From Eledone cirrhosa (lineage: Eukaryota), in NCBI GenBank assembly GCA_964016885.1, contig OZ024744.1:45074001-45138000 (forward strand): a DNA stretch of 64,000 bases, written 5' to 3'. Below, in pieces: positions 1 through 55,713 of the stretch. The translations under genes were made by a program, and so were the position numbers. How positions within the stretch are numbered: the stretch's first letter is position 1; every line of letters starts with the position of its first letter. The notes beneath the pieces are model-generated. The model saw only the letters and a program-made list of their open reading frames with translations. It was not told where the DNA came from and ran no database searches.

Positions 1-354
1 TATAGCTGATTTAGAGAACTCAACAATTCCTGAAGCAATTAAACAATGAAAATAAGCATTAAATCACTCTCTATCTAATTATGCATATACATACACATAT
101 AAATATATATATCTATACACACACAACCATACATACACACATATATACATACACATACATATACATATATATATATATTTACATATAGGAAAAAGTATGA
201 CCTCGACGGCAGAGATCAAGCCGTTTCTGAGGCTATTATATATACACACACAAACATAATATATAAAAATACATATACACACACATATCTACAAAAAGTT
301 ACGTCACCACCTTAATAAAAATACACACATATATATATACACACACACACACAC

Positions 355-389
<35 letters not shown>

Positions 390-718
390 TACAACAGATA
401 CATATAAAAATACAATTATATACAGACATACATATACATACAGATATATATAACTATATATACATATACGTATACATACATATATATATATATACATATA
501 TACACATATACACAACACACACAGAGAAATAAATATCTAAAAATACCCACCTTTTTAATTTTAGATATTTATTTCTGTGTTGTGTATATGTGTATATATG
601 TATATATATATATGTATGTATACGTATACGTATATATTGTTATATATATCTGTATGTATATGTATGTGTGTATATAATTGTATTTTTATATGTTTCTTCG
701 TTTTTAATTGTGTGCATG

Positions 719-777
<59 letters not shown>

Positions 778-1148
778 TTATATGTGAGTGTGTATTTTTA
801 TTAAGGTGGTGACGTAACTTTTTGTAGATATGTGTGTATATGTGTATTTTTATATATTATGTTTGTGTGTGTATATATAATAGCCTCAGAAACGGCTTGA
901 TCTCTGCGTCGGGGTCATACTTTTTCCTATATGTATATATATATATATATGTATATGTATGTATGTGTATGTATATATGTGTGTGTGTATGTATGGTTGT
1001 GTGTGTGCGTGTGTGTGTGTGTGTGTGTGTGAGTATATATATATATTTATATGTGTATGTATATGCATAATTACATAGAGAGTGATTTAATGCTTATTTT
1101 CATTGATTATTTGCTCCAGGAATTGTTGAGTTCTCTAAATCAGCTATA
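1..1148. repeat. Large imperfect inverted repeat (fold-back), arms ~1-542 and ~559-1148
   Basis: The window start TATAGCTGATTTAGAGAACTCAACAATTCC matches the reverse complement of GGAATTGTTGAGTTCTCTAAATCAGCTATA ending at 1148. The centre reads AAATATCTAAAA-spacer-TTTTAGATATTT. The left arm may extend beyond the window. Confidence 0.9.
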
Positions 1149-2760: not shown

Positions 2761-3111
2761 TATATATATATATACTTTTACTGTATTCTAACTTTTCCAT
2801 TTTTCATTTATATTTTTATTCTTTATTTTTATTTTTATATATATATTAACGGAAAAAATGAAACGAAATTTCATTTCCCACTCTTAGTACGGCTCTTACT
2901 TAAATATAAGTATGTACACGTACATACATATATGTATACATACGTACAGTAGTATGTATATATATATACATATATGCACATATATATATATGTACGTATG
3001 GATTCACCGAACATTTATTATAATGCTCGGTGTGTTTGTAAACAAACATCCCGTATTAAGCCGTAGTGTCTAGCAACCATCGTTGCTCGTTTGTTCAACA
3101 CTGACAAAGAA

Positions 3112-3154
3112 ACGCTGTACTAGTTTCAAGCTTATTAGCTATCGTCATCAACGT
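3112..3154 (-). ncRNA. Type I minimal hammerhead, unit A1 (core mutated: ATGACGA)
   Basis: Minus strand: ACGTTG-ATGACGA-tAGCTaataAGCTt-GAAA-CTAG-TA-CAGCGT. Confidence 0.7.
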
Positions 3155-3537
3155 ATCCCTTCCTGCCAGATTGTTGAACGTAAATACTTACCTTATGCAT
3201 ATCAACAGCTGAGTAGCCCAATTTGCATATCGAGTGGGTTAATCGGCCGGGTGCACCGAAAACGATAAACGGAAAAACTGAAACGAAATTTCATTTCCCA
3301 CTCTTAGTTCGGCTGTTGCTTAAATATAAGTATGTACACGTACATACATATATGTATACATACGTACAGTAGTATGTATATATATATATATACATATATG
3401 CACATATATATATATATGTACGTATGGATTCACCGAACATTTATTATAATGCTCGGTGTGTTTGTAAATAAACATCCCGTATTAAGCCGTAGTGTCTAGC
3501 AACCATCGTTGCTCGTTTGTTCAACACTGACAAAGGA

Positions 3538-3580
3538 ACGCTGTAATAGTTTGAAGCTTATTAGCTATCGTCAGCAACGT
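3538..3580 (-). ncRNA. Type I minimal hammerhead, unit A2 (GAAA mutated to CAAA)
   Basis: Minus strand: ACGTTG-CTGACGA-tAGCTaataAGCTt-CAAA-CTAT-TA-CAGCGT. Confidence 0.7.
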
Positions 3581-3953
3581 ATATCTTCCTGCCAGATTGT
3601 TGAACGTATATACTTACCTTATGCATAGTAACGGCTGAGTAGCCCGATTTGCATATCGAGTGGGTTAATCGGCCGGGTGCACCGAAAAGGGTAAACGGAA
3701 AAACTGAAACGAAATTTCATTTCCCACTGTTATGCGGCTGTTACTTAAATATAAATATGTACACGTACATACATATATGTAAACAGACGTACAGTAGGAA
3801 GTATATATATATATACATACTACGTTTAAATTTTTCCGTTTATCGTTTTCGGTGCACCCGGCCGATTAACCCACTCGATATGCAAATTGGGCTACTCAGC
3901 CGTTAATATGCATAAGGTAAGTATATACGTTCTACAATCTGGCAGGAAGGTAT

Positions 3954-3996
3954 ACGTTGCTGACGATAGCTAATAAGCTTCAAAGTAGTACAGCGT
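3954..3996 (+). ncRNA. Type I minimal hammerhead, inverted unit of array A (GAAA mutated to CAAA)
   Basis: ACGTTG-CTGACGA-tAGCTaataAGCTt-CAAA-GTAG-TA-CAGCGT. Confidence 0.7.
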
Positions 3997-4204
3997 TCCT
4001 TTGTCAGTGTTGAACAAACTAGCAACGATGGTTGCTGGACACTACGGCTTAATACAGGATGTTTGTTTACAAACACACCGAGCATTATAATAAATGTTCG
4101 GTGAATCCATACGTACATATATATATGTGTGCATGTATGTATATATATATACATACTACTGTACGTCTGTATACATATATGTATGTACGTGTACATACTT
4201 ATAT

Positions 4205-6627
4205 ATATATGTATTATTATATATGTATTATTATATATGTATTATTATATATGTATCCATACCTTTGACATTGTGTCTCACTATATCAAACACCCCTTAC
4301 CCCTTGCTCATCTTTCAAATGTTCATGTATGTATGTGTGTATATGTATATTTGTGTACGTCGCCATATATGTATGTCTGTATTTGTGTATATGTATATTT
4401 GTGTACGTCGCCATATATGTATGTATATGTGTATATGTATATTTGTGTATGTCACCATATATGTATGTATGTATTTGTGTATATGTATATTTGTGTACGT
4501 CGCTATATATGCATATATGTATTTCTGTATATGTATATTTGTGTACGTCGCCATATATGCATGTATGTATTTGTGTATATGTATATTTGTGTACGTCTCC
4601 ATATATGTATGTATGTGTGTACTGTGTGTGTTTAGCCCTAACTTTTTATGCTTTTCTCTGAGTGTGTTTTTTGTGTTTTAGTCTTTTTGTTTCTTCGCCT
4701 TTTGTTTATGTTTTTTGTCTTTACGTCCGTAAGTGTGCATGCTTGTTTTTATTTCATTTTTATTAATATATTTTTTTACATAAGTTTATTTATTTTTATT
4801 TTTAAGTTAATTTTTATTTTTATCTTTAATATTTATTATATTATTTTACCATTTCATTTTTATATTTTAATGTATGTATATATTCTTATTTATATGTGCG
4901 TATATAGTCGTCTATCAACTACTAAATACCTATTTTACTTCTACCTTCATTTATGTATACGTGTTTTCATTTGCGTACATACACATATTCTTTACTATAC
5001 ACATGCAATTGTATATGTAGATTTATCTATGCATGTATGTATATATAAAATATTGCCATATTTACAAAAATATTTTTCTAATATCGTGTTTAATATTTTA
5101 TCTTGTCGTCTGCTTCTCTGGTTACTTACTGTCTCACTCTCTCTTTCTTTCCCCTCTCACACAGCTTCTTCTTTCTCTCTCTTTTTGCCAGTCCCTTCTC
5201 TCACATAGCCTTCTCTCTCTTCGCCTTTTTTATTTGTCTCTTTCTTTCTGTCCCTGTTTCTCTCCTATAGACATTCTCTCTCTGGCACTACCATGCTATT
5301 AGCTGTCAGAAGTGAAAGTTTCGTCAACCTTCTCAATCGTAAACATCGTTTATTTCCGTATTACCACGCGTTATTTTAATAAAGCATATCGATGTAAGTG
5401 GAGTTACTTAAATGAACATATAGGTGGCCCTTAAAAGGGCCAAATTAGAAAACAAATTTAAGTAATTAGAAAACAAGTCATGGTTATCAAATAAATTGGA
5501 TTTAATCATTTATATTTTCATAGTCATGGTTATCAATGTAGAAAACAAGTCATTTTCACCAACAGTGGAGTTAACTTAAATGAAAATATATGTGGCCCTT
5601 AAAAGGACCAACTTTTTTTAACCAACCCTATACATTTATGAAGAAATATTTAGAAAACTAATTTTTTTCACCAACCTTATTCAAAAGCATGGATACAGTC
5701 CACATGGAGACAAGAGACAGTCCCCATGGAGACAATCCCCATGGAGATTGGTGGTATCTGCTGTAGTAGCGGTAGCGATGGAAAGATCGCGATGGTTAAT
5801 TCCATTAACACTTGGGTATATTGTAGAATTCATATTTTTCAACTTGCAAATGCGTGTATTATCACAAAGTAAAGCTTAAAGTTTCTTTATTTACACGTGG
5901 TGTTGGTGATGACTGTTGCTGATTGGTGGGGATTGTCTCCATGGGGACTGTCTCTTGTCTCCATGTGGACTGTATCCATGCTTTTGAATAAGGTTGGTGA
6001 AAAAAATTTGTTTTCTAAACATTTCTTCATAAATTTAGCCTTTTAAGGGCCACCTATATTTTCATTTAAGTTAACTCCACTGTTGGTGAAAATGACTTGT
6101 TTTCTACATTGATAACCATGACTATGAAAATATAGTTCATGGTATTAGCTGTCAGAAGTAACTCCACTGTTGGTGAAAATGACTTGATTTCTACATGACT
6201 ATGAAAATATAAATGATTAAATCCAATTTATTTTTTAACCATGATTTGTTTTCTAATTAACTTAAAAATTTGTTTTCTAATTTCTTCGCCTACTTTCACT
6301 TCTGACAGCTAATAGCATGGTAGTGCCTTCTCTCTTTCTTTTTCTGCCCCTCTCTCTCTTCTACTCTGCACTTTCTACTTCCTTCTCTTTCTCAACCGCG
6401 TTCCTGCTTACGGCAGTTCTAATGGAGATTTTGTTAACGCAAAGTCACACAAGGATTAGAAAAATGGCGATTATCACTTTGAAAGTAAAAATTATGCAAT
6501 AAATAGTTGTTATTGACACGTCTCGCATCCTCCTTTCGCAATGTGTAAAGTTTTAGCGAGATCGGGTGAACAATACGCAAGTTATAATACTTTACACACA
6601 CAAACAGAACGGGACTTATATAGTAGA
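4205..6627 (-). mobile_element. Helitron family A, 5' non-coding region (copy 1)
   Basis: Minus strand starts TCTACTATATAAGTCCCGTTCTG (5'-TC Helitron end). Colinear with 16079-17277 and 20590-22251, including the ~38-bp internal repeats (GTATATTTGTGTACGTCGCCATATAT...). A further piece lies at 2773-2845, beyond array A. Confidence 0.8.
5284..6327. mobile_element. Non-autonomous fold-back DNA transposon (MITE) inserted in a Helitron
   Basis: 36-bp TIRs GGCACTACCATGCTATTAGCTGTCAGAAGTGAAAGT; ~8-10-bp TSD-like TTCTCTCT; long internal inverted repeats (~5520-5740 / ~5925-6125); absent from the other Helitron copies. Confidence 0.85.
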
Positions 6628-7698
6628 CGAGTCCTGCCATTCAAGAACAATATCACGGTTTGAAGCACTCTCATTAGGACTTCTTATAAGCACCGCAACT
6701 TCATAGGTTTGAGGTCTGTTAAAGCAACCCTGATGCTGCCCTGGTGGAGCGTAGTCACCTCGAATGATTGGTGTTAGCATCTCTACGCTGAAAAGCAGTT
6801 TTGAAAATGGTGATGTAGAGGTTTATGGTATGAAGCATATATTGAAGGGACTGCAGAGGAAAAGGTATTGTTGCTTTAACAACTGAAGCTCTTCGTGCAG
6901 TTTCTTCAGGTCCGTTCCCCATAAAGTAAATCTGGAGAAAACTGTGTTCATCGCCATCTTGTGGAATAATGGAGCAAATTTGATGGTAAATTTGGCCTTG
7001 CACTTTGAATGTGGGCATATAATTTCCATGTTTTATTGGTGTATGACCAAAGCTTGTCATTTGGAAAGCCGAATTGTAGGCTCTTATATTTCTAAGAAAG
7101 TGTTTAGAATCAGGGTGTCTCCAAGCAGCAGAGAATTCAAAGGTTCGGCACCGACTTGTAAATGAGGCAATCTAACCGTTCCATTTGAGCAGCATATACC
7201 GGTAGATTCTGCTGGCCACCTCATTGCGTTACAATGGACGCAAACAGTTGACATACTATTAATGATGATATGTGGGTGGGATGCGTAGTCCTCTTCAAGG
7301 TTGTAATGAAAAGCCTTCTTAGACCAGTAACAGGAAGTAACCCTCGGAAAGACATGAGAACGCATTTTCCGTTGAGAATCAGCCGCAAGCCTTGTTGCCC
7401 TTTGGTCAACAGTCTCTAAAGCACGGCTATTTGAAGTAGAAGCAGCATCGCAAGCAAGCCGGAGTTCTGCTTGTTCAGCAGTCTGTAATGCTCTGGCCTT
7501 CGAAGTAGAAGTAGCATTGCGAGCAAGCCGGAGTTCTGCTTGTTCAGTTGTCTGTAATGCTCTGGCGATCGAAGTAGAAGCAGCATTGCGAGCACGCCGT
7601 AGCATACATTGTTCTTCTGTCTCGCTTGCGCGCAAAGAACGCAAAGCAAAAGCATTTCTTGTTTTTCTTCCAATGTGACTCTTGATTTTTCGAGGCAT
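6628..7698 (-). pseudogene. Helitron Rep-helicase N-terminal region (22-aa repeats, Zn motif), frameshifted and truncated
   Basis: MPRKIKSHIGRKTRNA..., repeats RLARNATSTSKARALQTAEQAE, CVHCNAMRWPAESTGICCSNG, MTSFG...FKVQGQIYH, RDIVL. A TTTCAG acceptor-like site lies ~30 bp upstream of the ATG. Confidence 0.9.
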
Positions 7699-8815
7699 TC
7701 TATGGAAAATCGGTAATTGAATAAATCTGAAACAAATCAAATCAAATAAATTTATCTCGTTGCTGTTTATGGGAGTTCTAATATTTGCAGGTATATATAA
7801 ATATACCTGTAAACATATGCATGTATTTATCTATGCATGTATGTATATATGAAATATATACATATATAAATATACCTGAAATATATGTATGCATTTATCT
7901 ATGCATGCATAGATAAAATATTGTCATATTTACAAAAATATTTTTCTAATATCGTGTTTAACATTTCATATTGTTGTCTGCTTCTCTTCCATTTCATCAC
8001 AACATGTGGTTACTTACTGTCTCACTCTCTCTTTCTTTCCCCTTTCACACAGCCTCTTCTTTCTCTCATTTTTTGCCAGTCCCTTCTCTCACACAGCCTT
8101 CTCTCTCTCTTCCTCTTTTTTCTTTGTCTCTTTCTTTCTGTCGCTGTTTCCCTCCTATAGACATTCCCTCTCATTTCTTTTCTGTCCCTCTCTCTCTTCT
8201 ATTCTGCACTTTCTACTTCCTTCTCAAATCATTAACTCTCAACCAGAGACTGACATACTACAGAACCTACTTCAAATGTTCAAAGAAAATATCATTACAA
8301 ACTGACTGATCACCGAGAAGAAATTGTGAAACGCAATGCTGTAAATGTTATGTATATGTCGTTAAGTAATTGTCACAACTATATTCCGTGACATCGGCAA
8401 TCAAATTACTGAGTACAATACTTGTCTACCTTGTAGGTTCTAGAAGAATTACAGTTCATCAGTGCTAATTAATAAAAGAGTCTTGTAATACACAATATGC
8501 AGCGTCATCTAAAGTGGTTATGTTTCTTTCATAAAAACATCTCGCATCCTCCTTTAGCAATGTGTACAATTTTAAGAGATGGGTGAATAATACGCAAGTT
8601 ATAATACTTTACACACAGACAGAACGGGAGTCGATCTCATCGAAAATCTGTATTTGAATAAATCTGAAACAAAATCAAATCAAAGAAATTTACCTGGTTG
8701 CTGTTTATAGGATTTCTAATGAAGATTTTGAATGCAAAGTCCCATAAGGATTAGAAAAATGGCGATATATATATATATATAAATATACCTGTAAACATAT
8801 GTATGTATTTATCTA
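7699..8815 (-). mobile_element. Rearranged Helitron family A 5' non-coding fragments
   Basis: 7900-8225 and 8535-8770 match parts of 5030-5280 and 6400-6615. Confidence 0.65.
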
Positions 8816-8829
8816 TGCATGTATGTGTA

Positions 8830-8869
<40 letters not shown>

Positions 8870-8892
8870 ATGTATAATAAACAATACAATAT

Positions 8893-8970
8893 AATTACCT
8901 CATTACCAGAGGTTTCCCGAATAAGACAAATACAAGAAACCTCCGCATTCGTTCATCAGACAAGGCAATT
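8893..8970 (-). ncRNA. Type I hammerhead ribozyme (intact core, long stem II)
   Basis: Minus strand: AATTGCCTTGT-CTGATGA-aCGAAT...ATTCGg-GAAA-CC-tct-GG-TA-ATGAGGTAATT. 11-bp stem I with G-U pairs; GUA cleavage triplet. Confidence 0.8.
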
Positions 8971-9533
8971 TGAAACAGTGAAATATTTGAAAAATCTCCT
9001 CAAGAAAGGCAAGAGTTTAACGGGCAAAAAAAGTAATAATACAAGAGATGTATAAAAATAAGATAAAAAAATATAGTAAGTGGATGTGTATAAATGTGTG
9101 TATATGCACCTACAAATGTACGTATGTGTGTATAGTGAAAAATGTGTGCGTAAGTACATACATGAAGGCAAACATCATAGTGTATGTGTGACCACAAATA
9201 CGTATATATATATATGTTGAAAAAGGAATTGTAAGATAATAGAGTTAGCGTACATACACACTCAGGGACTAAGAATTGAAATATATACACATACACGGAT
9301 GAAAGGACGCACACGTATAAACATACACACACGCGCAACCACATACATGTATGTGATATATACAGAGAATGGAGTGTATCAGTGAAAGCAGTGTCAGACT
9401 TAAGGTCGATACAGATATAAAAATATGAAATATGAAAAATTAATGAAATAATACATAAGATAAGAACAAAAATTAAGGCAAAGAGAAAGTAAGAGAGAGG
9501 GGTTATCAATTATAAAGTAACACTAGAAAAAAT

Positions 9534-9717
9534 AATTGTTTCTACTTTTTGGCACAAGGCCAGCAAATACCCAGTGTATTACTGGTACTTTATTTTATCG
9601 ACCCCATAAGGATGAAAGGCAAAGTTAACCTCGGAGGGATTTGAACTCAGAATGGCAAGGGCCGTAACTTTATGCGTCAAAGCATGGCGCCAGACCCTCT
9701 ACCGATACTGCCAATCC
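9534..9717 (-). mobile_element. tRNA-derived SINE (octopod-type)
   Basis: A box TGGCAGTATCGG, B box GAGTTCAAATCC, core TTTGCCTTTCATCCTTATGGGGTCGATAAAATAAAGTACCAG; TSD CACTAGAAA.AAATAA; empty site in the paralog near 56556. Confidence 0.9.
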
Positions 9718-10519
9718 ACTAGAAACAAATAATAAATAAAAAGTAGAAAGCATGCAGATATACGAACAAGCTCGTACGCACATATATATATATATATATA
9801 TATATATACGTACAGACAAAAACACATGCACAAAAGGATACATACACATACATGCATACTTACATACACATACATGCATACTTACATACAAAAACACGCA
9901 TACATACACACGATACACATATACATACATGTACATCTAATCACACGAACGCACGCGACCATCTATACACACACACACACATATATATATATACACATAT
10001 ATATAAGTATGTAAAAAACATATACGTAAAAGCACACATACACACACATATATACACAAACACGCACACATACGAATGCATTCGTATACATATACAAACA
10101 CGTATATACATATATGCACACACACAAGCATACATACATATATAAAAACCAGCCGTATGAATACATGGGTACAAGGTATACGCAAGTAAACATATATAAA
10201 AGCGGCTGAGGGACAACAGAAAATATCTGGAGTTAAAAACACAAGTGACATGTGATATCAGGTAGTGAAAGAAAAGGGGGAAGTAAAACATGTAAAATTA
10301 TTAAGATATAAAGTAAGTGAATCAAAAAGCAGGGGGAGGGGCGTCACTAGTGGATGTGAAGTAAAAATAAAAATAAAAATAAAAATAAAAATAAAAATAA
10401 AAATAAAAATAAAAATAAATCTGAAAGAGAAGTCTGTAAAGAAGGTAAGTTGAGGAAAGTGAAGAACAAGAGTTTGTGGAGGATAAGTGTCTGAAAGTGA
10501 GTTAAGTTTATATGAGCTG

Positions 10520-10851
10520 GAAACCAAGTGTGATTTCATATGTGGGCAACTGGGGAAAATTTCTGTTTTTGTATTTAGGCAGGTTTTGGTGATTTAAGGT
10601 TCTGTAAAATCCAATATTTTTCACTTATGCACAGTGTGCATATTCTTGTTCCTCTTGCATATTCTTTAGATTGGTTCAAAATTGACCAATCTAATTTATA
10701 TTGGATACCTTGGTCTTTCAAATCCCATATTCTGCTAGCCAGAGCTGTTGTAAATATTTTTTCAGGATGTCGGAAAGATGCGACATGTGAGTAATAACGC
10801 GTTTTGAATTTGTCTTGTGTCATACCCACATATCGTTCGCTGGTGGTTGTC

Positions 10852-10853
<2 letters not shown>
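10520..10853 (-). pseudogene. Penelope-like element GIY-YIG endonuclease fragment
   Basis: YVGMTQDKFKTRYYSHVASFRH...YKLDWSIL...CTLCISEKYWIL. Confidence 0.85.
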
Positions 10854-10930
<77 letters not shown>

Positions 10931-11425
10931 ACCTTAGGAACTTACCCACGGACATACACTAAAAAAAATGTTTTCGAACCACGCCACCTACATCCACAAA
11001 ACGTATAAACACCACACACACGTGCGTACCCCCACATATATACATACTCAGCCTCCGGATTCCTCTCCCTCACCCCCTCTGACCACTCCCCTGCACACGC
11101 ACACACACCGACCTACACCCCACCCCACACACACACCCTTTCCTGAACATGGAACCTCGTTCTTCCCCCAACTCTCACATTCACCCCTCCCCCACACACA
11201 CGTACACCTACACACATACACCCCCTTCAGCCCTCCCCGCTCGGACACCCCGCCTCCCTCTCCCCACTCCACCCGCCCCACACCCTTCTACCACTTGTTT
11301 ATCTTCATGTTTATTTCTATTTCTATTTTTTTTGTATCCGTTCCACCGTCCTCCCTTTTTTTTCTAAATGTCTCTCCTCCACTCCCCTACACACCCTCGG
11401 AACTCTCTTCCCACGCACCTTTCGC

Positions 11426-11453
11426 CTGAAGAAGGGATTATGCCCGAAACGTC
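11426..11453 (+). ncRNA. Minimal hammerhead core (stem I weak)
   Basis: CTGAAGA-aGGGattatgCCC-GAAA-CG-TC with palindromic ACGT stem III. Confidence 0.55.
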
Positions 11454-11541
11454 GTTCCCCACCCCCACCCCCACTCTCAAGAGCGTGAAACTAATAAACC
11501 TTTGTTCGTACTGCCTCTCTGTTTTGTTCCCGTTCCATTTT

Positions 11542-11624
<83 letters not shown>

Positions 11625-12078
11625 GAATAATCGAGTATCGAAAAATTGGCGCACGAGTTCACGATAAACAAAATTCGATATGAGCGGCAGAGGGCTCAAT
11701 AATTTAGATAAATCAAAGCTATAACTATCGTTAAAATACCGTCACACATAGAACAAGTCTATAATCAACCATACAACCGAAAAATTGCGATCTGGAAGAT
11801 TCGGGACACTCAGATAAAAAATCAATAAATCAATAAATCAAATGAATGTAAAAAGCATACCCGGACCCGCTAGAAAGATGGTAAATCTCTCTCTCTCTAT
11901 ATATATATATCGCGTGCGTGCGTGTGATTAGATGTACATGTATGTATGTATATGTGTATCGTGTGTATGTATGCGTGTTTTTGTATGTATGTACGCATGT
12001 ATGTGTATGTATCCTTTTGTGCGTGTGTTTTTGTCTGAGCGTATATATATATTTATATATAGTTTTAATATAGATGAG

Positions 12079-12125
12079 ATTCTACAGGACTAGAACTGTT
12101 TCAATCTTTAGAAATCATCAGGAAT
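12079..12125 (-). ncRNA. Type I hammerhead motif
   Basis: Minus strand: ATTC-CTGATGA-tttctaaagatt-GAAA-CAG-ttctagtc-CTG-TA-GAAT. Stems I and III pair; stem II is weak. Confidence 0.6.
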
Positions 12126-12204
12126 ATGGCTGTCCAAATAAATGTTGTGGTATTTATATCTTTTCAGGTGGTAGGAGAGGGTGGGGAGTGGGATGGGTGG
12201 AGGT

Positions 12205-12540
12205 CATTGGTTGAAAGAAAGGGGAATTCATTAAAAGCTAATTCTTTAAGGCTATAAATTATATTTAGAGTGACAAAGGCAGAAAGAATTCTATAAACAA
12301 GTTCAAATTCAAGTGCCACTCCTTATTTTTAAGTTTCTCTTAAGCTAACAATGCCTATATTTCAGATGTCTATAAGTTGGTTGGGGGTCGGTCATGGATG
12401 ATGGATTTAAAGAAAGGGGAAATTCTTTAAAAGCTAATTCTTTAAAGCTCTACTTAGAGTGACAAAGGCGAAGAGAATTATATAAACCAGTTCAAATGTT
12501 GGGTGCCTATCATTATTGTCATGTTTCTCTTAGGCTATAT
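12205..12540. repeat. Two-copy ~195-bp tandem duplication, possibly a PLE 3' end
   Basis: AAAGAAAGGGGAA..T..AAAAGCTAATTCTTTAA...TTAGAGTGACAAAGGC is repeated at ~12214 and ~12408. Confidence 0.6.
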
Positions 12541-13002
12541 GATCAATTTAATTCTTTAACTAGACGACATGAAGTCTTAGGCTATATGATCAATTTAATT
12601 CTCTTTAACTAGACGACATGAAGTCTACGTATCAAAACTGATTAAGGAATCCTTCCACCTCTACCCCTCCCTCCATCTCAGTTTGTCAATCTACTTCCTA
12701 ACTCTTCTCCCCCTTCCTCTCTCTCTATACTATTCCATTTGTCCCCTGACCTTCTAATTCCTCTTCCTCTCTCTATATACTAGTAAATACAATTCCAAAA
12801 TCATGTTTTTCTCTATATATTGAGAACTATTGCAAGAGTAACTTACTCACTATTTAGAAAATGTGGACATGAACAACAATTATAATTGAGTGGCTGCTAT
12901 TTGCAGTATAGCAATATAAGGTTGCCCTTACCAACGTGTTAATGCTTACCTGTGTTTTCTCTTTTATACTATGTATATATATATGTACACACACACACAC
13001 AT

Positions 13003-13125
<123 letters not shown>

Positions 13126-13129
13126 GAGA

Positions 13130-13350
13130 TACACGGGTCTATATGATTGTGTATAGAAGATTATATTACTAAAAGGAATTCCAACTTTGTCTGATTTACT
13201 CGTTATATTTGCAATCCTTTAAAATGTATAATGGTATTAGAATAAAATAGTATGGTAGAATATTAAATGTTAAGTGTTAATTGAACAAGTACTTTCATGC
13301 TTTCGCAATCTTCAGGTTCATAATGTGTGGTGAGAGTCGAGTTTGCAATT
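13130..13350 (-). repeat. ~220-bp HHR-bearing dispersed repeat; other copy at 55186-55408 (+)
   Basis: Reverse complement of 55186-55408 along its length. Confidence 0.8.
13282..13320 (-). ncRNA. Type I minimal hammerhead (intact core)
   Basis: Minus strand: TGAAC-CTGAAGA-tTGCgaaaGCAt-GAAA-GTAC-TT-GTTCA; palindromic stem III AGTACT. Confidence 0.8.
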
Positions 13351-13456
13351 TCCAACTGTATATGTATATACATATACACACATATACAAACACATATACA
13401 GATATACACATATATACACATATACATAAATACATAAATACATAAATATACATACC

Positions 13457-13483
<27 letters not shown>

Positions 13484-13492
<9 letters not shown>

Positions 13493-13725
13493 TAGAATAT
13501 TCGAAAATATTCTGTATGTTTATAATAAACATTTTGAAGACCTAATCGCTATAGAAGATATGTAGTCCTGAAGATTTCTAATAAGAATGAAACGCGTAGA
13601 TTACTTCCCTTGCTTTTATCGAGAATCTAATTGTAATACGTGACGTATTCTATTCTATAGCGATTAGGTCTTCAAAATGTTTATTATAAACATACAGAAT
13701 ATTTTCGAATATTCTATGTCTATAT
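13484..13725. repeat. Perfect 73-bp inverted repeat (13484-13556 / 13653-13725) enclosing a hammerhead
   Basis: The arms read as exact reverse complements. Confidence 0.9.
13562..13604 (+). ncRNA. Type I minimal hammerhead (intact core)
   Basis: GTAGTC-CTGAAGA-tTTCTaataAGAAt-GAAA-CGCG-TA-GATTAC; 6-bp stem I, palindromic ACGCGT stem III. Confidence 0.82.
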
Positions 13726-13762
13726 TCACATATATATCGCTATTTCAGAGCATTTATTCCAA

Positions 13763-13811
<49 letters not shown>

Positions 13812-14099
13812 CATACATACATGCCAATATGCAGGTACATATGAACGCACGTACACACAACGATACGCATGCAAACGAACGGCTACTCTTACAAATACAT
13901 ACAAACATGTACTCATACCTTTACGCATATACACAGGCACATAAAAACAGATCTACAAGCAGAAAATTCAGATAGGTAAGAGGTACTTACATAACCATAG
14001 TGCCGTGTTTCATGTTGAGAAGGGGTAGGGTGGGGTGGGAAGGAGGTAGAGGGGCTATTTTGTCGGGTGACGTTTTAAAAAAAAGGGGGGGGAGTCGTT

Positions 14100-14640
14100 T
14101 TTAGCCATCGGGCATTAACACTGGTTTAAGGTATTTGAAAGTTGCAAAGTTTTTGTGCATGCAGTTCGGGCAGTGTTCAGAGAATTTGTTCAGTAGCGGG
14201 CCCTTGGCGAATAATATTTCGTAGCTCTCTGAGATACAAAGGTCGCAGCACTTGTGCTCTCCGTTCTATGAGCGCGCTTACTGGAGTATTTTCCATTTAA
14301 GCGTGAAGGGGGTGGAGTTCCTTTTGGGGTCCCAAGCATAGGAGGCGAGGGTTGTCTGATTTGATTCGTCCGGTCTTTCTGAAGGAGTGGGTATGGGCAT
14401 ACCACCGGGTTTTAAAGTTATTGGAAGTCATGCCGATGTAAGTCTTTTTGTTGTTGCAATCATCGGTGCCTGAGATGACATCGCATTTGTCTACGATATC
14501 ATCTGTCAGGCATTTGTTTTCAAGTGGGCAGGCTTCCTTATTTAGGCAATTACACAAGGCCTCAGTCCGGGGATTGGGTTCGGAGGTGGTTGGCTTATTT
14601 AATTTTTTAGAATTGTAATTGGCTATATTCCTAGCTATGT
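14100..14640 (-). pseudogene. Penelope-like (Neptune-type Cys linker) GIY-YIG fragment
   Basis: CNCLNKEACPLENKCLTDDIV...KTYIGMTSNNFKTRWYAHTHSFR. Confidence 0.85.
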
Positions 14641-14650
14641 TAGGTGCAGT

Positions 14651-14811
14651 GGAGCAAGCCGGAGTTCTGCTTGTTCAGTTGTCTGTAATGCTCTGGCGAT
14701 CGAAGTAGAAGCGGCATTGCGAGCACGCCGTAGCATACATGGTTCTTCTGCCTCGCTTGCGCGCAAAGAACGCAAAGCAAAAGCATTTTTTGTTTTTCTT
14801 CCAATTTGACT
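14651..14811 (-). pseudogene. Helitron family A Rep N-terminal fragment
   Basis: Nearly identical to 7521-7680; directly abuts array B. Confidence 0.85.
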
Positions 14812-14953
14812 TTTCGTTTCATTTTTTCCGTTTATCGTTTTCGGTTCGCGCAGCCGATTAAGTCACTCGATATGCAAATTAGGCTACTCAGCCGTTAATA
14901 TGCATAAGGAAAGTATATACTTTCAGACGTTCAATCATCTGGCAGGAAGGTAT

Positions 14954-14996
14954 ACATTGCTGACGATAGCTAATAAACTTGAAACTAGTACAGCGT
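14954..14996 (+). ncRNA. Type I minimal hammerhead, unit B1 (core intact)
   Basis: ACATTG-CTGACGA-tAGCTaataAACTt-GAAA-CTAG-TA-CAGCGT. Confidence 0.8.
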
Positions 14997-15393
14997 TCCT
15001 TTGTCAGTGTTGAACAAATGAGCAACGATGGTTGCTAGACACTGTACGGCTTAATTCGGAATGTTTGTTTACAAACACACCGAGCATTATAATAAATGTT
15101 CGGTGAATCCATACGTACATATATATATATATGTGCATGTATGTATATATATATATACATATACATGCTACTGTACGTCTGTATACATATATGTATGTTC
15201 CTTTACATACTTATATTTAAGTAACAGCCGTATTAAGAGTGAGAAATGAAATTTCGTTTCATTTTTTCCGTTTATCGTTTTCGGTGCGCCCGGCCGATTA
15301 ACTCACTCGATATGCAAATTAGGCTGCTCAGCCGTTAATATGCATAATGAAAGTATATACTTTTACACGTTCAATCATCTGGCAAGAAGGTAT

Positions 15394-15436
15394 ACGTTGC
15401 TGACGATATCTAATAAGCTTGAAACTAGTACAGCGT
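15394..15436 (+). ncRNA. Type I minimal hammerhead, unit B2 (core intact)
   Basis: ACGTTG-CTGACGA-tATCTaataAGCTt-GAAA-CTAG-TA-CAGCGT. Confidence 0.8.
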
Positions 15437-15827
15437 TCCTTAGTCAGTGTTGAACAAATGAGCAACGATGGTTGCTAGACACTGTACGACTTAATTCGGG
15501 ATGTTTGTTTACAAACACACCGAGCATTATAATAAATGTTCTGTGAATCCATACGTACATATATATATATATATGTACATGTATGTATACATATATACAC
15601 ACTACTGCACGTCTATATACATATATGTATATACGTGTACATACTTATATTTAAGTAACAGCCGTACTAAGAGTAAGAAATGAAATTTCGTTTCATTTTT
15701 CCCGTTTATCGTTTTCGCTGCGCCCGGCCGATTAACTCACTCGATATGCAAATTAGGCTGCTCAGTTGTTAATATGCATAATGAAAGTATATACTTTCAG
15801 ACGTTCAATCATCTGGCAGGAAGGTAT

Positions 15828-15870
15828 ACGTTGCTGACGATAGTTAATAAACTTGAAACTAGTACAGCGT
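15828..15870 (+). ncRNA. Type I minimal hammerhead, unit B3 (core and stems intact)
   Basis: ACGTTG-CTGACGA-tAGTTaataAACTt-GAAA-CTAG-TA-CAGCGT; palindromic ACTAGT stem III, GUA triplet. Confidence 0.87.
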
Positions 15871-16078
15871 TCCTTAGTCAGTGTTGAGCAAATGAGCAAC
15901 GATGGTTGCTAGACACTACGGCTTAATTCGGGTTGTTGGTTTACAAACAAACCGAGCATTATAATAAATGTTCGGTTAATCCATACGTACATATATATGT
16001 GTGCATGTATGTATATATATATACAACTACTGTACGTCTGTATACATATATGTATATACGTATACATACTTATATTTA

Positions 16079-17277
16079 TATATTTATGTTTACCTTTATT
16101 GTTTTACTTCATAACACCCATGACTTTTTACTGTATTTTAATTTTTTCATTGTTCATTTATATTTTTATTCTTTATTTTTATTATTATATGTATCCATAC
16201 CTTGTCTGACATTGTGTCTCAGTATATCGCACACCCCTTACCCTTGCTCATCTTTCAAATGTTCATGTCTGTATTTGTGTATATGTATATTTGTGTACGT
16301 CGCCATATATGTATGTATGTATTTGTGTATATGTATATTTGTGTACGTTGCCATATATGTATGTATGAATTTCGTGTATATGTATATTTGTGTACGTCGC
16401 CATATATGCATGTATGTATGTGTGTATATGTATATTTGTGTACGTCGCCATATATGTATGTATGTGTGTACTGTGTGTGTTTAGCCCTAACTTTTTATGC
16501 TTTTCTATGAGTGTTTTTTGTCTTTACGTCCGTAAGTGTGCATGCTTGTTTTTATTTTATTAATATATTTTTTTGCATAAGGTTTTTTATTTTTATTTTT
16601 AATTTAATTTTTATCTTTAATTTTTATATTATTTTACAATTTCCTTTATATATTTTTATGTATCACATATATTCTTTACTATACACATGCAATTGTATAT
16701 GTAGATTTATCTATGCATGTATGTATATATAAAATATTGCCATATTTACAAAAAATATTTTTCTAATATCGTGTTTAATATTTCATATTGTCGTCTGCTT
16801 CTCTTCTCACAACATGTGGTTACTTACTTCTCTAAACTCTCTCTTTCTTTCCCCTCTCACACAGCCTATTCTTTCTCTCTCATTTTGCCAGTCCCAACTC
16901 TCACAGAGCCTTCTCTCTCTTTCTTCCCCTTTTTTCTTTGTCTCTTTCTTTCTGTCTCTGTTTCCCTCCTATAGACATTCTCTCTCTTTCTTTTTCTGTC
17001 CCTCTCTCTCTTCTACTCTGCACTTTCTACTTCCTTCTCTTTCTCAGCCGGGTTCCTGCTTACGGCAGTTCTAATGGAGATGTTTTAACGCAAAGTCACA
17101 CAAGGATTAGAAACATGGCGATTATCACTTTGAAAGAAACAATTATGCAATAAATAGTTGTTATTGACACGTCTCACATCCTCCTTTGGCAATGTGAAAA
17201 GTTTAGCGAGATCGGGTGAACAATACGCAAGTTATAATACTTTACACACACAGACAGAACGGGACTTTTATAGTAGA
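16079..17277 (-). mobile_element. Helitron family A, 5' non-coding region (copy 2)
   Basis: Minus strand starts TCTACTATAAAAGTCCCGTTCTG at 17277; colinear with copies 1 and 3. Confidence 0.85.
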
Positions 17278-17744
17278 CTAGCAAATGCCCCCCCCCCCCC
17301 TCCCCTGTCCATTGGACAGTGTTAATTCTTGGTAGGACTGCAGTCTTAATGGTGAAATTCCGTCTTGTCGATATTTAACATGGAGGGTAATTTTATGTGA
17401 TCAAATATTTCAGTCAAAAATGAGACGGTATTCAAATACTGCATGTTTTATTTACAGATATCTGTCATTAAAATGTGAAAATAGAGAAATATCGAAAATA
17501 TAAAATAGAGAAAAATGTGAAAATAGGGGAAAATGAAAATATCGTTTGGAATGTCGTTTAATTGACTGAATGGCTGAATAATCGGTACAAAAAGCTTAGA
17601 CGACAGTTTGGTTGACATGAAGGCAATCTGTAAGAAACTACATGTGTAATTGAATTAAGAAATAACCTGGGGCATGTGGAAGGCTGCCCATTGAAATGAA
17701 AAAATGGTTGATTTCATCAATGGCCATTTGTTGGAAGAGTAACA

Positions 17745-18790
17745 TTACCTATTGTGAAAAGTAAGTAATCGCAATAAGAACCCACCTAAAGGAGCGTAGT
17801 AAAATAGATTGGCCGAGTGTCCAACTCTTGAACATCCCACATACAGTTGCCTGTGTGAAAAGCATGGAGTACTGATGTCCATCCCAACCACTTTTAGTGA
17901 CTGCCCCTGGGCTTTGTTAATGGTTATTGCAAAACTTAATCGAATGGGGAATTGGACTCTTTTCATCGAAAAGACACAGTCAGTTGGAATAAGTGGAACT
18001 CTGTAAATAAAAACAGAGTCGCCAGCGCCTTTTCCCGTAATGATTGTAGCCTCGAGAACGTCACCTAACATTTGCGTTATAACCAAGCGTGTGCCATTGC
18101 AAAGCCGAGGAGGTTCCAAGTTTCTCAAGAGTATGATGGGACTTCCAAGTCTTAGGCAGAGTTTATGCGGTGGCATTCCTGATGGCTCTTGTGAGTTAAA
18201 AAACTCTGTTGGATAAAACGTTACTTGCGTCGGATCCGTAATCGAATCAATCGAAGCATAACATCGCTCTTGGGAAGGAAGTTGACGAAGCAGACATGTG
18301 TTAAGAGCTTGGACGGTGGCATTTGTAGGAGCTAAGATGGCCCTTTCACACATCCATTTATGACTGACGTAATTTGTTGAGAGGTTGGGGTAAACTTGTG
18401 CAAATGTCCTCAGGGCTGGAGACGTAGTTACCGATGGTACTTATGTCAACCAAACCGTTTACGTCGATTGGTAAGTTCCCATTACCCACATCCAATAACT
18501 TTGAAGCAAAGTAATTGTCACCGTCTTGTTGGTGGAGAATCGATCGCATGTTGATGGTTAACTTTCTCGACTGGACGAAGCGCCAAAGATGAGAATGTTT
18601 AATGCAAGCATCTATTTCATCAACTGGTTGGCTTTTGGGACAATGGGAAGAGTTTGACGAACATCTCCAGCAAGAAGCAGAACGACGCCACCGAACGGTT
18701 TAGAATTGGAGCGCAGGTCTTGTAGCGTTGTATTGATTGCATCAAGTGCTCTTGTGGGACATTTTTGCCTCGTCCCAGACAATCAATTTG
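17745..18790 (-). pseudogene. Helitron Pif1-type SF1 helicase, frameshifted
   Basis: CERAILAPTN, PPHKLCLRLGSPIILLRNL..PRLCNGTRL, RVQFPIRLSFAITINKAQGQSL, QLYVGCSRV. Confidence 0.93.
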
Positions 18791-18819
18791 CATTTTTGAA
18801 AGACAGCAGCCTCATCAGA

Positions 18820-19590
18820 ATTCTTCTTTGCCAACACCCGGAAGATTTATTCCACGTGTAGATTGTAGACAACTCCACATAAAGCAGTGTTCTGGCAAGA
18901 GAGTCAGAAGTACAAAGTTCAAAGAATCCGGTAAGGGTCGTTCTTCGAGGTTGTCTTGCACAGTCAAGCATATTTTGTTGGTTAAAATACACCCGTTAAC
19001 CATTCTCCAAATGAACGCTGATGTGAATAACTGCAGGTTCACGTTCATGGATCGGAAAACGGAATATGCGTCAAGATGCCTCGTTAGAACAGATGTAGCA
19101 TCCAGTTTGGAAAAATGTGACTTCATCTGTGGCGGCATCAGGGTTATCTGTCTTAGCCAACTCAATAACTGCTCGATCGGCTCCCTTATGAACATACTTG
19201 CAGATGTATTGGATTGATTTTACGGAGTTGCAGAATTCAACATTAAGTGGGCTGAAAATATTTTACAAAGCACCTTGTTATGTGGTACAACACATCGGTT
19301 GTCGATATTGAAATCTTGACCACCAACCATTGTTATAGTTGCCGTATGTCCACCCTCCTGTGGTGCCCTGCGACGGTATAAAGGGTAGCCATCATCACCA
19401 GTTTTGGTTTCATGGATACGTTTACGTGGGTAACGTACATTTCCCATTATCCATACATGCAGATTTTGGATTTAGGTGGCCTCACGGTCCATGGATCATG
19501 TTGCCTTTTATAATTTGAAAAAAGATAGGGGCTTCTTGGGGATTTGGCAATTCAGCATTTATAACGGATTCAACACCAGTTGACATGAGC
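18820..19590 (-). pseudogene. Helitron Rep (HUH) domain fragment
   Basis: MIHGP, YPRK...TGDDGYPLYRRR, IDNRCVVPHN, RTTLTGFFELC...YTWN. Confidence 0.88.
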
Positions 19591-19631
19591 CTTTTTTGAA
19601 GCCAAAGGAGAATATGGGAATCCTCTCCCAC

Positions 19632-19733
19632 ATGTCGCTGTTTCCCTCCTATAGACATTCTCTCATTTTCTTTCCCCTCTCACACAGCCTCTTCTTTCTC
19701 TCTCTTTTTGCCAGTCCCTTCTCTCACATAGCC

Positions 19734-19778
<45 letters not shown>

Positions 19779-19916
19779 TCTCCCTTCCGCTTCCTTTTTT
19801 TGTCTGTTTCTTTCTGTCGCTGTTTCCCTCCTATAGACATTCTCTCATTTTCTTTCCCCGCTCACACAGCCTCTTCTTTCTCTCTCTTTTTGCCAGTCCC
19901 TTCTCTCACACAGCCT

Positions 19917-19958
<42 letters not shown>

Positions 19959-20232
19959 GCTTCCTTTTTCGTCTCTTTCTTTCTGTCGCTGTTTCCCTCC
20001 TATAGACATTCTCTCTCTTTCTTTCCCCTCTCACACATCTTCTTTCTCTCTCTTTTGCCATTCCCTTGTCTTCCACAGCCTTCTCTCTCTCTCTCTCTCT
20101 CTCCCTTCCGCTTCCTCTTTTGTCTCTTTCGTTCTGTCGCTGTTTCCCTCCTATAGACATTCTCTCTCTTTCTTTCCCCTCTCACACATCTTCTTCTTTC
20201 TCTCTCTTTTGCCATTCCCTTGTCTCCCACAG

Positions 20233-20278
<46 letters not shown>

Positions 20279-20560
20279 CTCTCTCTTCCGCTTCCTTTTT
20301 CGTCTCTTTCTTTCTGTCGCTGTTTCCCTCCTATAGACATTCTCTCTCTTTCTTTCCCCTCTCACACATCATCTTCTTTCTCTCTCTTCTGCCATTCTTC
20401 TGCCATTCTCTGCCAGCCTTCTCTCTCTCTCTCTCTCTCTCTCCCTTCCGCTTCCTCTTTTGTCTCTTTCGTTCTGTCGCTGTTTCCCTCCTATAGACAA
20501 TCTCTCTCTTTATGTTTCTGTCCCTCTCTCTCTTCTACTCTGTACTTCCCTTTCTTTCTC
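19632..20560. repeat. CT-rich tandem repeat amplified from the Helitron non-coding region
   Basis: TGTCGCTGTTTCCCTCCTATAGACATTCTCTC recurs 6 times at ~150-190 bp spacing. Confidence 0.85.
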
Positions 20561-22399
20561 TTTCTCAATGTACCGCGTTTATCGGAGTGATGAGTAAAAA
20601 CATACACACGTATACGTACAGATATAAATATACATTTATATATTCATTTTTAGCTTTATTGTTTTACTTTATAACACCCTCTTACTACTTTTACTGTATT
20701 CTAACTTTTTCATTTTTCATATATATTTTCATTCTTTATTTTTATTATTATATATGTATTATTATATATGTATTATTATATATGTATTATTATATATGTC
20801 AAAGGTATGGATACATATATAATAATATATGTATCCATACCTTTGACATTGTCTCACTATATCACACACCCCTTACCCTTGCTCATCTTTCAAATGTTCA
20901 TGTTTGTATTTGTGTATATGTATATTTGATACGTCGCCATATATGCATGTATGTATTTGTGTATATGTATATTTGTGTACGTCGCCATATATGTATGTAT
21001 GTATGTGTGTATATGTATATTTGTGTACGTCGCCATATATGTATGTATGTATGTGTATGTATATTTGTGTACGTCGCCATATATGCATGTATGTATTTGT
21101 GTATATGTATATTTGTGTACGTCGCCATATATGTATGTATTTGTGTATATGTATATTTGTGTACGTCGCCATATATGTATGTATGTATTTGTGTGTACTG
21201 TGTGTGTTTAGCCCTAACTTTTTATGTATATGTATATCTTGCTTTTCTATGAGTGTGTTTTTGTGTTTTAGTTTTAGTTTTTTGTTTCTTCGCTTTTTCT
21301 TTTTTGTCTTTACCTCCGGAAGTGTGCATGCTTGTTTTTATTTCATTTTTATTATTATTATTTATTTTTATTCTTATTCTTATTTTATAATTATTTTTGA
21401 TCATTTTATGTTTGTTTTTATTCATTTATAATTTATATATATTTTTTTTTTGCATAAGGTTATTTATTTTTATTTTTATTTTTACTTTTATCTTTAATTT
21501 TTATTATATTATTTTACCATTTCATTTTTATATTTTAATGTATGTATATATTATTTATATGTGCGTATATAGTCGTCTATCAACTACTAAATACCTATTT
21601 TACTTCTACCTTCATTTATGTATACGTGTTTTCATTTGCGTACATACACATATTCTTTACTATACACATGCAATTGTATATGTAGATGTATATATGCATG
21701 TATGTATATATAAAATATTGCCATATTTACAAAAATATTTTTCTAATATCGTGTTTAATATTTTATCTTGTCGTCTGCTTCTCTTCTCACAACATGTGGT
21801 TACTTACTGTCTCACTCTCTCTTTCTTTCCCCTCTCACACAGCCTCTTCTTTCTCTCTCATTTTGCCAGTCCCTTCTCTCACACAGCCTTCTCTCTCTCA
21901 ACCTTTTTTCTTTGTCTCTTTCTTTCTGTCGCTGTTTCCCTCCTATAGACATTCTCTCTCTTTCTTTTTCTGTCCCTCTCTCTCTTCTACTCTACACTTT
22001 CTACTTCCTTCCCTTTCTCAGCCGGGTTACTGCTTACGGCAGTTCTAATGGAAATGTTTTAACGCAAAGACACACAAGTATTAGAAACATGGCGATTATC
22101 ACTTTGAAAGTAACAATTATGCAATAATTAGTTGTTATTGACACGTCTCGCATCCTCCTTTGGCAATGTGTAACATTTTAGCGAGATCGATGAAAAATAC
22201 GCAAGTTATAATACTTTACACAGACAGACAGAACGGGACTTCTATAGTAGATATACCTCCCTACCAACCCACCTATCTCAAAACTTTCTACAGCGTCCAT
22301 CTTATGACGTCACACACCCTACTCCTACTGTCACTTGTCTGTACTCTTCTTACTACCACAGCTCTCTCCCACCAACACTGCCAAAGTGAGATATGTATG

Positions 22400-27600: not shown

Positions 27601-28340
27601 GTGTCCACCAGAAACCGGTAGATCGGTCGCTAATGTGGAACAAGAGGCTAGATTTGGAAGAGCCAGGTGTAGTTGCCATCGTTTGTACCTGGCCACGTCG
27701 TTACCCGGAACATGACGGGAATCCCTTCTAAAAGAACAGGGCAATAGGTATTTACGGCCTCTTTCACCGAATTTACTGTGTTAATAGCATAAGGGATAGG
27801 TCGCTCGGGTCTCCCGGGCGCTGATGTAAATCGTGCCGAGATGAGCTGGCGTTGCTGCGAGGCTGTAACTGCAGTTTAGCCATAAGTGCGTTCAATTGTG
27901 CCTTCTGTCTCATCTCCGAGACAGAAGACGAGGAAGGAGAAGAAGGAAAAAACGAGGAAGAAAGAGGGGAAGAAAATGAACTTATTAGTGGATGTGTGTG
28001 TCTCTCTTGGGCCACAAATGACCGTGGTGCTGCTACCTCCATTATTCTATCATCTGAATCTGCTAGCACCTCGATTTGGATGGATGCTTTACTGTCCGCC
28101 AAAATGCCGCGAGTTGCAGGCAGCAGCCTTTGTAGGAAAAGTTGTTTCAAGATGGCCGAATCCATGGTGTTCTCTCCCACAGTTGTTTTAACTGTCTTAA
28201 GAACTGTAACGGTTTCCTATCGCTTAACGCCCTCGAATAAAGAAGCTGGTTAATCTGGTGCTTCTGAGAGACGGATGTCCGCTTTACAAGTTTGGACCTT
28301 AAGGTGGCATATGAATATGTACCTGGTTGGGCTGTAAGCA
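24680..28340 (-). mobile_element. pol: Degenerate Gypsy LTR retrotransposon (gag-PR-RT-RNaseH-IN remnants)
   Basis: LKQLFLQRL (gag), DTG (protease), KTAITTPF...YIDD (RT), FFSRRLKPAETKYSTF (RNase H), TAYHPTANGMVERFHRQLK (integrase), GPY; PPT-like CTGGGCGGGAAAC near 24690; many stops and frameshifts. Confidence 0.92.
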
Positions 28341-28389
28341 AATCCTGGATCTTCTGCAGGATTTCAAGGGGAAGTGGCCAAACAAAAGG

Positions 28390-29210
28390 AGAAATTTTGG
28401 TCCTGTCTACCGAAACATTATGTGTTTGAAATTGGACCTCGATATATCTGAACCAAATCCTCCTCTAGTTAGAATGTTCTTCTTCTTGTTGCCTGACGTG
28501 GACTGTAGAGGCTCTGATTCATTGATCAACTCACGGTTAAGTGAAGTATTACTAGTGTTATTATTATCAATAGTTACTTTGGTATTACTAAAGAAATGCA
28601 ATATAGTCGCTTGCTTTTTCTCACTCATTATGGGTTTATTTCATTGGAATCTAAGAACAAACAAAGCTATCAAAGCCAAATAAAATAAAACAATCGGATG
28701 AGAATCGGTATTTGCGGAGCGGGATAACTGTTGTAATGGTAGAAACAATACTGAAGCATACATGCATCATATTGTCGATAGATGACACATATATGTAAAA
28801 TTCATGGATGTTAGTTCTTTACTGAGGAGAAACTTAGGGGAGGGGAGCGATAAAATATATTTTAACTTAATATTAATTTTGTTTTATTATTAATAAGACA
28901 TGGGGCTGTGGATTGGCAGTATAGGTAGAGGGTCGGAAGCCATGGTTTGCAGCTTAGAGTTACGGCCCTTTATAATCTGAGTTCAAATCCCGCCGAGGTT
29001 ACCTTTGCCTTTCATCTTTACGGGGTCGATAAAATAAAGTACTAATCACGCACTAGTGTCGATTTAATCGACTTTCTCCTCCCCCAAAATTGCTGGCCTT
29101 GTGCCTATATAAGAAACCATTATAAATAAGACATAGAAATTGCAAATAATGTCCAAATCTTTCTGCGGACCACCAACATTTTCTATCGGACCACTAGTTG
29201 GCCACCGCTG
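28390..29210 (-). mobile_element. hAT (Charlie/Buster-like) transposon 5' fragment
   Basis: Minus-strand end CAGCGGTGGCCAAC with subterminal GTGGTCCG motifs, flanked by GTTTAAAG; ORF MSEKKQATILHFF resembles a transposase N-terminus. Confidence 0.6.
28902..29123 (+). mobile_element. tRNA-derived SINE, full length
   Basis: A box TGGCAGTATAGG, B box GAGTTCAAATCC, TSD AATAAGACAT. Confidence 0.9.
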
Positions 29211-55254: not shown

Positions 55255-55668
55255 ATTAACACTTAGAATTTAATATTCTATCATACTATTTTATTATAAT
55301 ACCATTATATATATTTTAAAGGATTGTAAATAAAACGAGTAAATCAGACAAATTTGGAATTCCTCTTATTAATATAATCTTCTATACACAATCATACACA
55401 CCCGTGTATATTTACCTATCTATCTATATATATATATATATATAAACAATTAAGTTAAAAATGTACATCCGCATATGTATACTGAAATACTAGTATGCAT
55501 ATGAATACACACACGTATACATATGTAGATGTACCAAGTCTTTCACTGGTTACTTTACTGTGAGTATCCAGCTATTCTGTATGTAAACACACAGACAAAC
55601 CGGTTTTTAGAGTCATACTGGTTTTTGAGGAAACACCTTTCCTCTATTCTCCAGAAAGCCAGACAAGG

Positions 55669-55713
55669 AATATTGAACTAGTTTCGTTGTTGTTACAACT
55701 CATCAGCAATATT
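55669..55713 (-). ncRNA. Type I hammerhead (canonical core, perfect stems)
   Basis: Minus strand: AATATTG-CTGATGA-GTTGT-aaca-ACAAC-GAAA-CTAG-TT-CAATATT; 7-bp stem I, 5-bp stem II with G10.1-C11.1. Confidence 0.9.

Follow-up and report, generated by a model that had tools for sequence, protein, structure and literature searches.

The window analysed here, a 64,000-nucleotide stretch of the Eledone cirrhosa genome, contains two arrays of a tandem repeat with a unit of ~434 bp (Tandem Repeats Finder and self-BLAST), termed array A and array B, which lie among several copies of one Helitron family (Table 1). Termini and domains identify the host as a canonical Helitron, which lies on the minus strand and whose copies in the window are broken. 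The 5′ ends begin with TC, the 3′ end carries a hairpin and CTAG (TTAG in one copy), insertion occurs between A and T, and genomic copies of the family match Helitron_like_N (E=6e-35) and PIF1 (E=3e-53). Copy 3 and the copy that holds array B are joined head to tail, the CTAG of one directly followed by the TC of the other. In all these respects, the family resembles canonical Rep/PIF1 rolling-circle Helitrons, from which it differs here in the broken state of the window copies and in bearing ribozyme arrays as secondary insertions, not as cargo. At least 40 and at least 36 candidate copies were found from the 5′ region, and at least 115 from the Rep start. The window belongs to a zone in which segmental duplications, direct as well as inverted, share ~95-97% identity; paralogous zones are at C28:43.11-43.14, 44.14-44.33, and 45.85-45.86 Mb.

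Table 1. Features of the window, and insertions recorded at the 14-bp minisatellite of the Helitron
Feature	Position or locus	Strand	Details
Imperfect 1.1-kb palindrome	1-1148		84%; present in the segmental duplicate too
Helitron 5′ non-coding, left of array A	2773-2845	-	alignment to copy 3
Array A, inverted arm	2846-3822	-	~2.3 retrozyme units; Tandem Repeats Finder and self-BLAST
Array A, direct arm	3823-4204	+	terminates at CATACTTAT within the 14-bp minisatellite
Array A, plus-arm predicted hammerhead	3954-3996	+	GAAAC mutated to CAAAG
Helitron 5′ non-coding, right of array A	4205-5283 and 6329-6627	-	another repeat in between; 5′ TC at 6627
Inverted-repeat-rich element inside the array-A Helitron	5283-6328		histone stem-loop-like matches under the Rfam cut-off at 5402-5446 and 5569-5614
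Rep N-terminal coding fragment, neighbouring Helitron copy	6640-7698	-	start codon 7698
GIY-YIG PLE fragment	10578-10856	-	87% alike in protein to 61415-61639
PLE remnant truncating the Rep fragment	13411-14650	-	GIY-YIG fragment ~14212-14650
Rep N-terminal fragment without first codons	14651-14811	-	~96% identical to 7521-7683
Array B	14812-16078	+	2.9 retrozyme units; Tandem Repeats Finder and self-BLAST
Array B, predicted type I hammerheads	14954-14996, 15394-15436, 15828-15870	+	motif and covariation
Helitron 5′ non-coding, right of array B	16079-17277	-	5′ TC terminus 17277
Helitron copy 3, internally deleted	17278-22251	-	5′ TC 22251; 3′ hairpin and CTAG 17278-17281
PIF1 helicase remnants, copy 3	17745-19632	-	domain search and open reading frame list
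Empty hotspot, copy 3	20743-20849		four TATTATTATATATG copies, then fold-back palindrome
Degenerate Gypsy-like gag, protease, RT/RNase H, and integrase frames	24900-28460	-	open reading frame list, by eye
Third hammerhead repeat family	55407-55807		467-bp unit
GIY-YIG PLE fragment	61415-61639	-	87% alike in protein to 10578-10856
Hotspot insertion	array A		family 1
Hotspot insertion	L199		family 1; 11-bp target duplication
Hotspot insertion	L190		related 466-bp family
Hotspot insertion	L189, C28:44.147 Mb		family 3, 467-bp unit, inverted; 12-bp duplication
Hotspot insertion	L192		fragment of a fourth hammerhead family
Hotspot insertion	L205/L206		truncated PLE 3′ end with GIY-YIG domain; target deletion as in array B

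A preliminary description had placed both arrays inside the 5′ region of the same Helitron family, with array B between the 5′ non-coding region and a Rep fragment and with the flanks of array A contiguous in the array-free copy 3; alignment of the flanks agrees on each point. Of the flanks of array A, the left (2773-2848) corresponds to copy 3 positions 20686-20761, and the right aligns to the 14-bp minisatellite of copy 3 and the sequence beyond it. At this site copy 3 has no array and shows instead a short fold-back palindrome of the flank (20796-20849), common to its duplicates, which is possibly the repair scar of a cut. The right flank of array B joins copy 3 at ~20632, placing the two Helitron sites ~125 bp apart, close to the earlier estimate of ~100 bp. 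In ten array-free comparisons with the same anchors, array B stands in place of ~1.1-3.3 kb of Helitron sequence that contains the Rep start codon, and its left join has a 5-nt microhomology. The right junction of array A and the left junction of array B each have exactly two genomic occurrences, one here and one in the segmental duplicate at C28:43.1 Mb; no contig piece spanned the whole stretch over the latter junction, an uninformative result. The remnant of a Penelope-like element (PLE) directly abuts the Rep fragment; the Helitron copy holding array B has thus probably also taken a PLE insertion on its opposite side. The GIY-YIG fragment of this remnant lies just under the curated cut-off (E=2e-4), and its inverted repeat (13411-13805) has a hammerhead-like core at 13568.

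The repeat unit is tandem and non-coding, without LTR or open reading frame, and contains CTGACGA-stem II-GAAAC-TA-GTA enclosed by a six-pair stem I, that is, one predicted minimal type I hammerhead, a motif defined by the core CUGANGA...GAAA...UH plus three helices. Across nine aligned units from three related families, picked for intact cores, the core bases are invariant, 92% of stem cells are paired compared with 23-46% in slid controls, and six stem pairs show two-sided changes. The catalytic bases are kept in all three cores of array B, and all three cores of array A are mutated (two in the minus arm and one in the plus arm). Rfam scans gave no hammerhead match on array A or B, and the folding of single cores did not surpass that of shuffled sequences (z-scores not significant), so the type I ribozyme carried by the units, with its self-cleavage, is a prediction. 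MicroRNA matches in the same scans were rejected as TA-repeat noise. A related family-3 core at 55653-55724 matches Hammerhead_HH9 at 38.6 bits, under the 52-bit cut-off; the family labels 1-4 are our own, arrays A and B belonging to family 1. A long run of the family-3 core word with 466-bp spacing is also present at C1:5.74-5.75 Mb. According to the available portion of 10.64898/2026.07.22.740005, one of nine predicted retrozymes cleaved.

In the 3.0-Gb assembly, the core 19-mer of the monomer has 9,617 exact matches, which, with the 62 clusters formed by the first 100 matches taken as typical, corresponds to ~6,000 loci. We inspected 44 of these loci outside the window: 28 independent loci among the best matches to array B (30 taken of 40 scored of 1,690 candidates, less the window itself and L019, which overlaps L006) and 16 consecutive loci along the first 14.3 Mb of C1. 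Helitron sequence was found within 1.5 kb of none of the 44, either by blastn or by tblastn with Rep and helicase, and weak Helitron-like matches at L131-133 proved to be TA/CA microsatellite. A monomer at L205:2223-2642, 2.2 kb from a Helitron, is excluded from these counts, yet bears the Helitron label in the tree discussed below. PLE RT or GIY-YIG fragments lie near five of the 44 loci, with continuity with the monomer seen at none of these five. Target duplications of 11-13 bp flank the insertions at L013, L029, L189, and L199, most others being masked by (TA)n; the family is therefore dispersed and high-copy with target duplications longer than 4 bp, the combination by which retrozymes are recognized. 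At L122 and L190, units are 99-100% identical in some arrays and ~95% in others, which suggests very different ages or recent local amplification.

The outer 3′ ends at the 44 loci (n=66) fall near CATACTTAT in 35 cases, near CCGTTTAT, ~60 nt further on, in 23, and elsewhere in eight, so that 58 of 66 lie at two sites; wide position bins were used, as alignments are blurred by TA repeats. Most ends adjoin (TA)n, and an inverted arm is present at 25 of the 44 loci. Genome-wide, CATACTTAT followed by ATATA has 5,126 matches, some of them maybe internal variants, against 22 for a reversed control. The right ends of arrays A and B both stop at CATACTTAT(AT), and the outer end of the array A minus arm is the second preferred 3′ end (...TTTTTCCGTT). 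The monomer junction common to both arrays, to which the preliminary description had drawn attention, is thus real but not specific to the Helitron: since CATACTTAT is the usual 3′ end of the family, the shared join base is uninformative about the host.

An inverted 5′-truncated arm, alternative 3′ ends, and TA targets are the traits expected of mobilization by PLEs, for which the available text of PMC8557442 describes a tandem or inverted structure, a tail, and a bias to (TA)n. In that of PMC11167929, an anole PLE cuts both strands at ATT in vitro and starts at two internal RNA sites, and the accessible parts of 10.64898/2026.07.22.740005 and PMC7229834 propose that animal retrozymes are non-autonomous PLE derivatives. 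Because its inverted arms, its pair of fixed 3′ ends, and its TA targets agree with PLE insertion, the unit of arrays A and B is, on structural grounds, a non-LTR retrozyme nested in a Helitron. Comparison by described features, not by clade placement, with the EN-bearing PLEs Neptune, Poseidon, and Naiad (names from PMC8557442 and PMC11167929, as far as these texts were available) shows that these, too, insert in tandem and inverted form, with alternative 3′ ends and at AT-rich or (TA)n targets, and carry a hammerhead in the repeat; a PLE 3′ end also occupies the same hotspot, and the window unit differs in encoding no protein. The ~60 nt between the two retrozyme 3′ ends exceed the 30-40 bp given there for the PLE tail, and both retrozyme ends finish in TTAT beside TA targets, whereas the in vitro PLE start site, as described, is not homologous to the cut. 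Metazoan non-LTR retrozymes, to the extent described in the portions of PMC7229834 and 10.64898/2026.07.22.740005 available, also have GC-poor tandem non-coding units a few hundred bp long, each bearing a single type I hammerhead whose helix III is very short, and also reach copy numbers in the thousands with target duplications longer than 4 bp; those descriptions include no inverted arms, two fixed 3′ ends, or Helitron hotspot, and RNA-level traits (circles and cleavage) are part of the class, whereas the window family is defined here by its sequence. Terminons, as outlined in the available part of PMC6431247, likewise have hammerhead motifs beside other mobile-element sequence, but are giant retroelements attached to telomeres, and nothing of this kind was seen at the window arrays. 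A search of the open literature by title and abstract opening, with subscription papers outside its scope, found no published link between Helitrons and hammerheads, in line with the preliminary description, which knew of none.

The array A site coincides with a 14-bp TATTATTATATATG minisatellite of the Helitron, in which six independent insertions of five hammerhead-bearing families were recorded (Table 1), four of them with the left join directly after TATATGTATT. Two adjoining copies of the 14-mer are present at just ten genomic sites, all within this Helitron. With duplicates counted once and truncated or site-deleted copies (L151, L154, and L193) left out, insertions are present in six of 12 alleles with at least two 14-mer units, some degenerate, and in none of 16 single-unit alleles (Fisher p=0.0025, or 0.006 without array A); these p-values are indicative only, because alleles were sorted by eye post hoc and many come from one duplicated C28 region. 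The data support the 14-bp repeat as an insertion hotspot and a modestly new target, and agree with the alternative raised in the preliminary description that the repeat targets this TA-rich site, several hammerhead families and a PLE having independently entered the same minisatellite in other Helitron copies. The multi-unit state may invite cutting, or may result from it. In the 5′ region of yet another Helitron copy, at L096-L097 (C28:89.727-89.735 Mb), lies an inverted PLE pair with a 409-aa RT-like frame, GIY-YIG, and hammerhead-like cores.

Duplicates of the region provide information on the order of events. The segmental duplicate at C28:43.11-43.14 Mb is ~96% identical to the non-Helitron flanks of the window and is without 7684-14811, whereas a third paralogue, at C28:45.857 Mb, matches the array-A Helitron on either side of the site (the left flank and, on the right, the Rep junction) but holds no array, so array A is most likely later than its Helitron. 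Two further filled/empty pairs are L189/L207 and L205/copy 3. Unit numbers differ between the duplicates (three versus six for A and three versus one for B), indicating DNA-level turnover after insertion. In a tree of 82 units, which is shallow and leaves many branches open, array A units fall in a supported 26-row subfamily and array B units outside it, and the nearest non-duplicate relatives of both are non-Helitron copies. In none of 200 bootstrap trees do the Helitron-embedded units group as a single clade, and they require at least three label changes on starred branches. Descent of both arrays from one local segmental duplication, also considered in the preliminary description, is ruled out, as sites and subfamilies differ and identity is 89-92% between the arrays versus 94-95% within them.

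Helitrons are known for sequence capture, and the preliminary description had suggested that such an element may have taken up the hammerhead repeat and multiplied it through rolling-circle transposition. Beyond this general propensity, family-1 units are embedded in five Helitron loci (A, B, L199, L200, and L201), above uniform chance, and the monomer base at which the window arrays end is the same in both. However, the five loci all differ in junctions and structures, and captured cargo would show the same junction in several independently transposed copies, whereas the tested A and B junctions recur solely in one segmental duplicate. The empty paralogue of the array-A Helitron, the lack of a single clade, and the deletion of the Rep start by array B argue in the same direction, as does summed contig depth, which, as a rough measure from three runs of one sample and not a copy number, is ~2,000,000 for the monomer versus 366-1,648 for the Rep fragment. 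None of the 44 other loci lies in a Helitron, the very outcome that the preliminary description had named as counting against capture, which we consider very improbable.

Chance co-location, in which an abundant TA-seeking element in a TA-rich genome struck Helitrons twice without a true hotspot, draws on the 40,541 core matches of related hammerhead families, to which the fourth family adds 3,564, and on the ~1,700 (TA)4+ tracts per Mb in the DNA retrieved for analysis, plain (TA)n holding most insertions. Such a process would nevertheless give only 0.02-0.14 insertions, on a rough expectation of uniform insertion at 5-35 loci per Mb, where six outside the window share the same 150 bp of ~26 Helitron copies, and it is also at odds with the concentration of insertions in multi-unit alleles; it is unlikely. 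Ectopic recombination, or break repair templated by an existing array, could have produced one or both arrays without reverse transcription. The right junction of array B lies within ~35 bp of partial monomer/Helitron similarity, through which recombination could have shaped it; the microhomology on the left, the wealth of duplications and fold-backs in the region, and the post-insertion turnover of units point the same way. Against this, both arrays end at the standard 3′ end of the family, the inverted form of array A matches that of 25 of 44 loci, and the PLE 3′ end at L205/L206 has the same insert-plus-deletion form, leaving recombination only a very small probability.

Arrays A and B are thus very probably two separate insertions of a high-copy retrozyme with a predicted hammerhead into Helitron copies likely already on the chromosome, likely mobilized in trans by a PLE endonuclease and RT. 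Observed support comes from dispersed non-Helitron copies, fixed ends, inversions, duplications, filled/empty pairs, and repeated minisatellite hits. In the proposed mechanism, a PLE protein would bind the retrozyme RNA and nick AT- or TA-rich DNA on one or both strands, and reverse transcription would start within the RNA, at either of two sites. If both nicks serve for priming, the inverted form of array A would result, whereas priming from one nick, with a join at the 5-nt microhomology 1-3 kb away, would give an insertion with deletion as in array B, thereby taking out the Rep start codon; later unequal exchange would alter unit numbers. A more far-reaching reading, which we regard as possible while leaning slightly against it, has two parts. 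Several unrelated PLE-driven families would use the 14-bp minisatellite, present in one Helitron subfamily, as a landing site specified almost to the base, so that PLE endonucleases would read beyond plain (TA)n; and the paired fixed ends of the retrozyme would record in the genome that priming took place on both strands, at two internal starts, giving direct evidence on the mode of animal retrozyme insertion.

A ribozyme spread by Helitrons would link a rolling-circle DNA transposon to self-cleaving RNA elements; this is not the case here, where the Helitron is the target of the retrozyme and not its vehicle. The retrozyme is a known type of element, and the Helitron itself is ordinary. What remains of value is a retrozyme family of thousands of copies whose insertion ends resemble the in vitro PLE reaction, along with a defined natural target that five families have hit and that is directly usable in a PLE cleavage assay.
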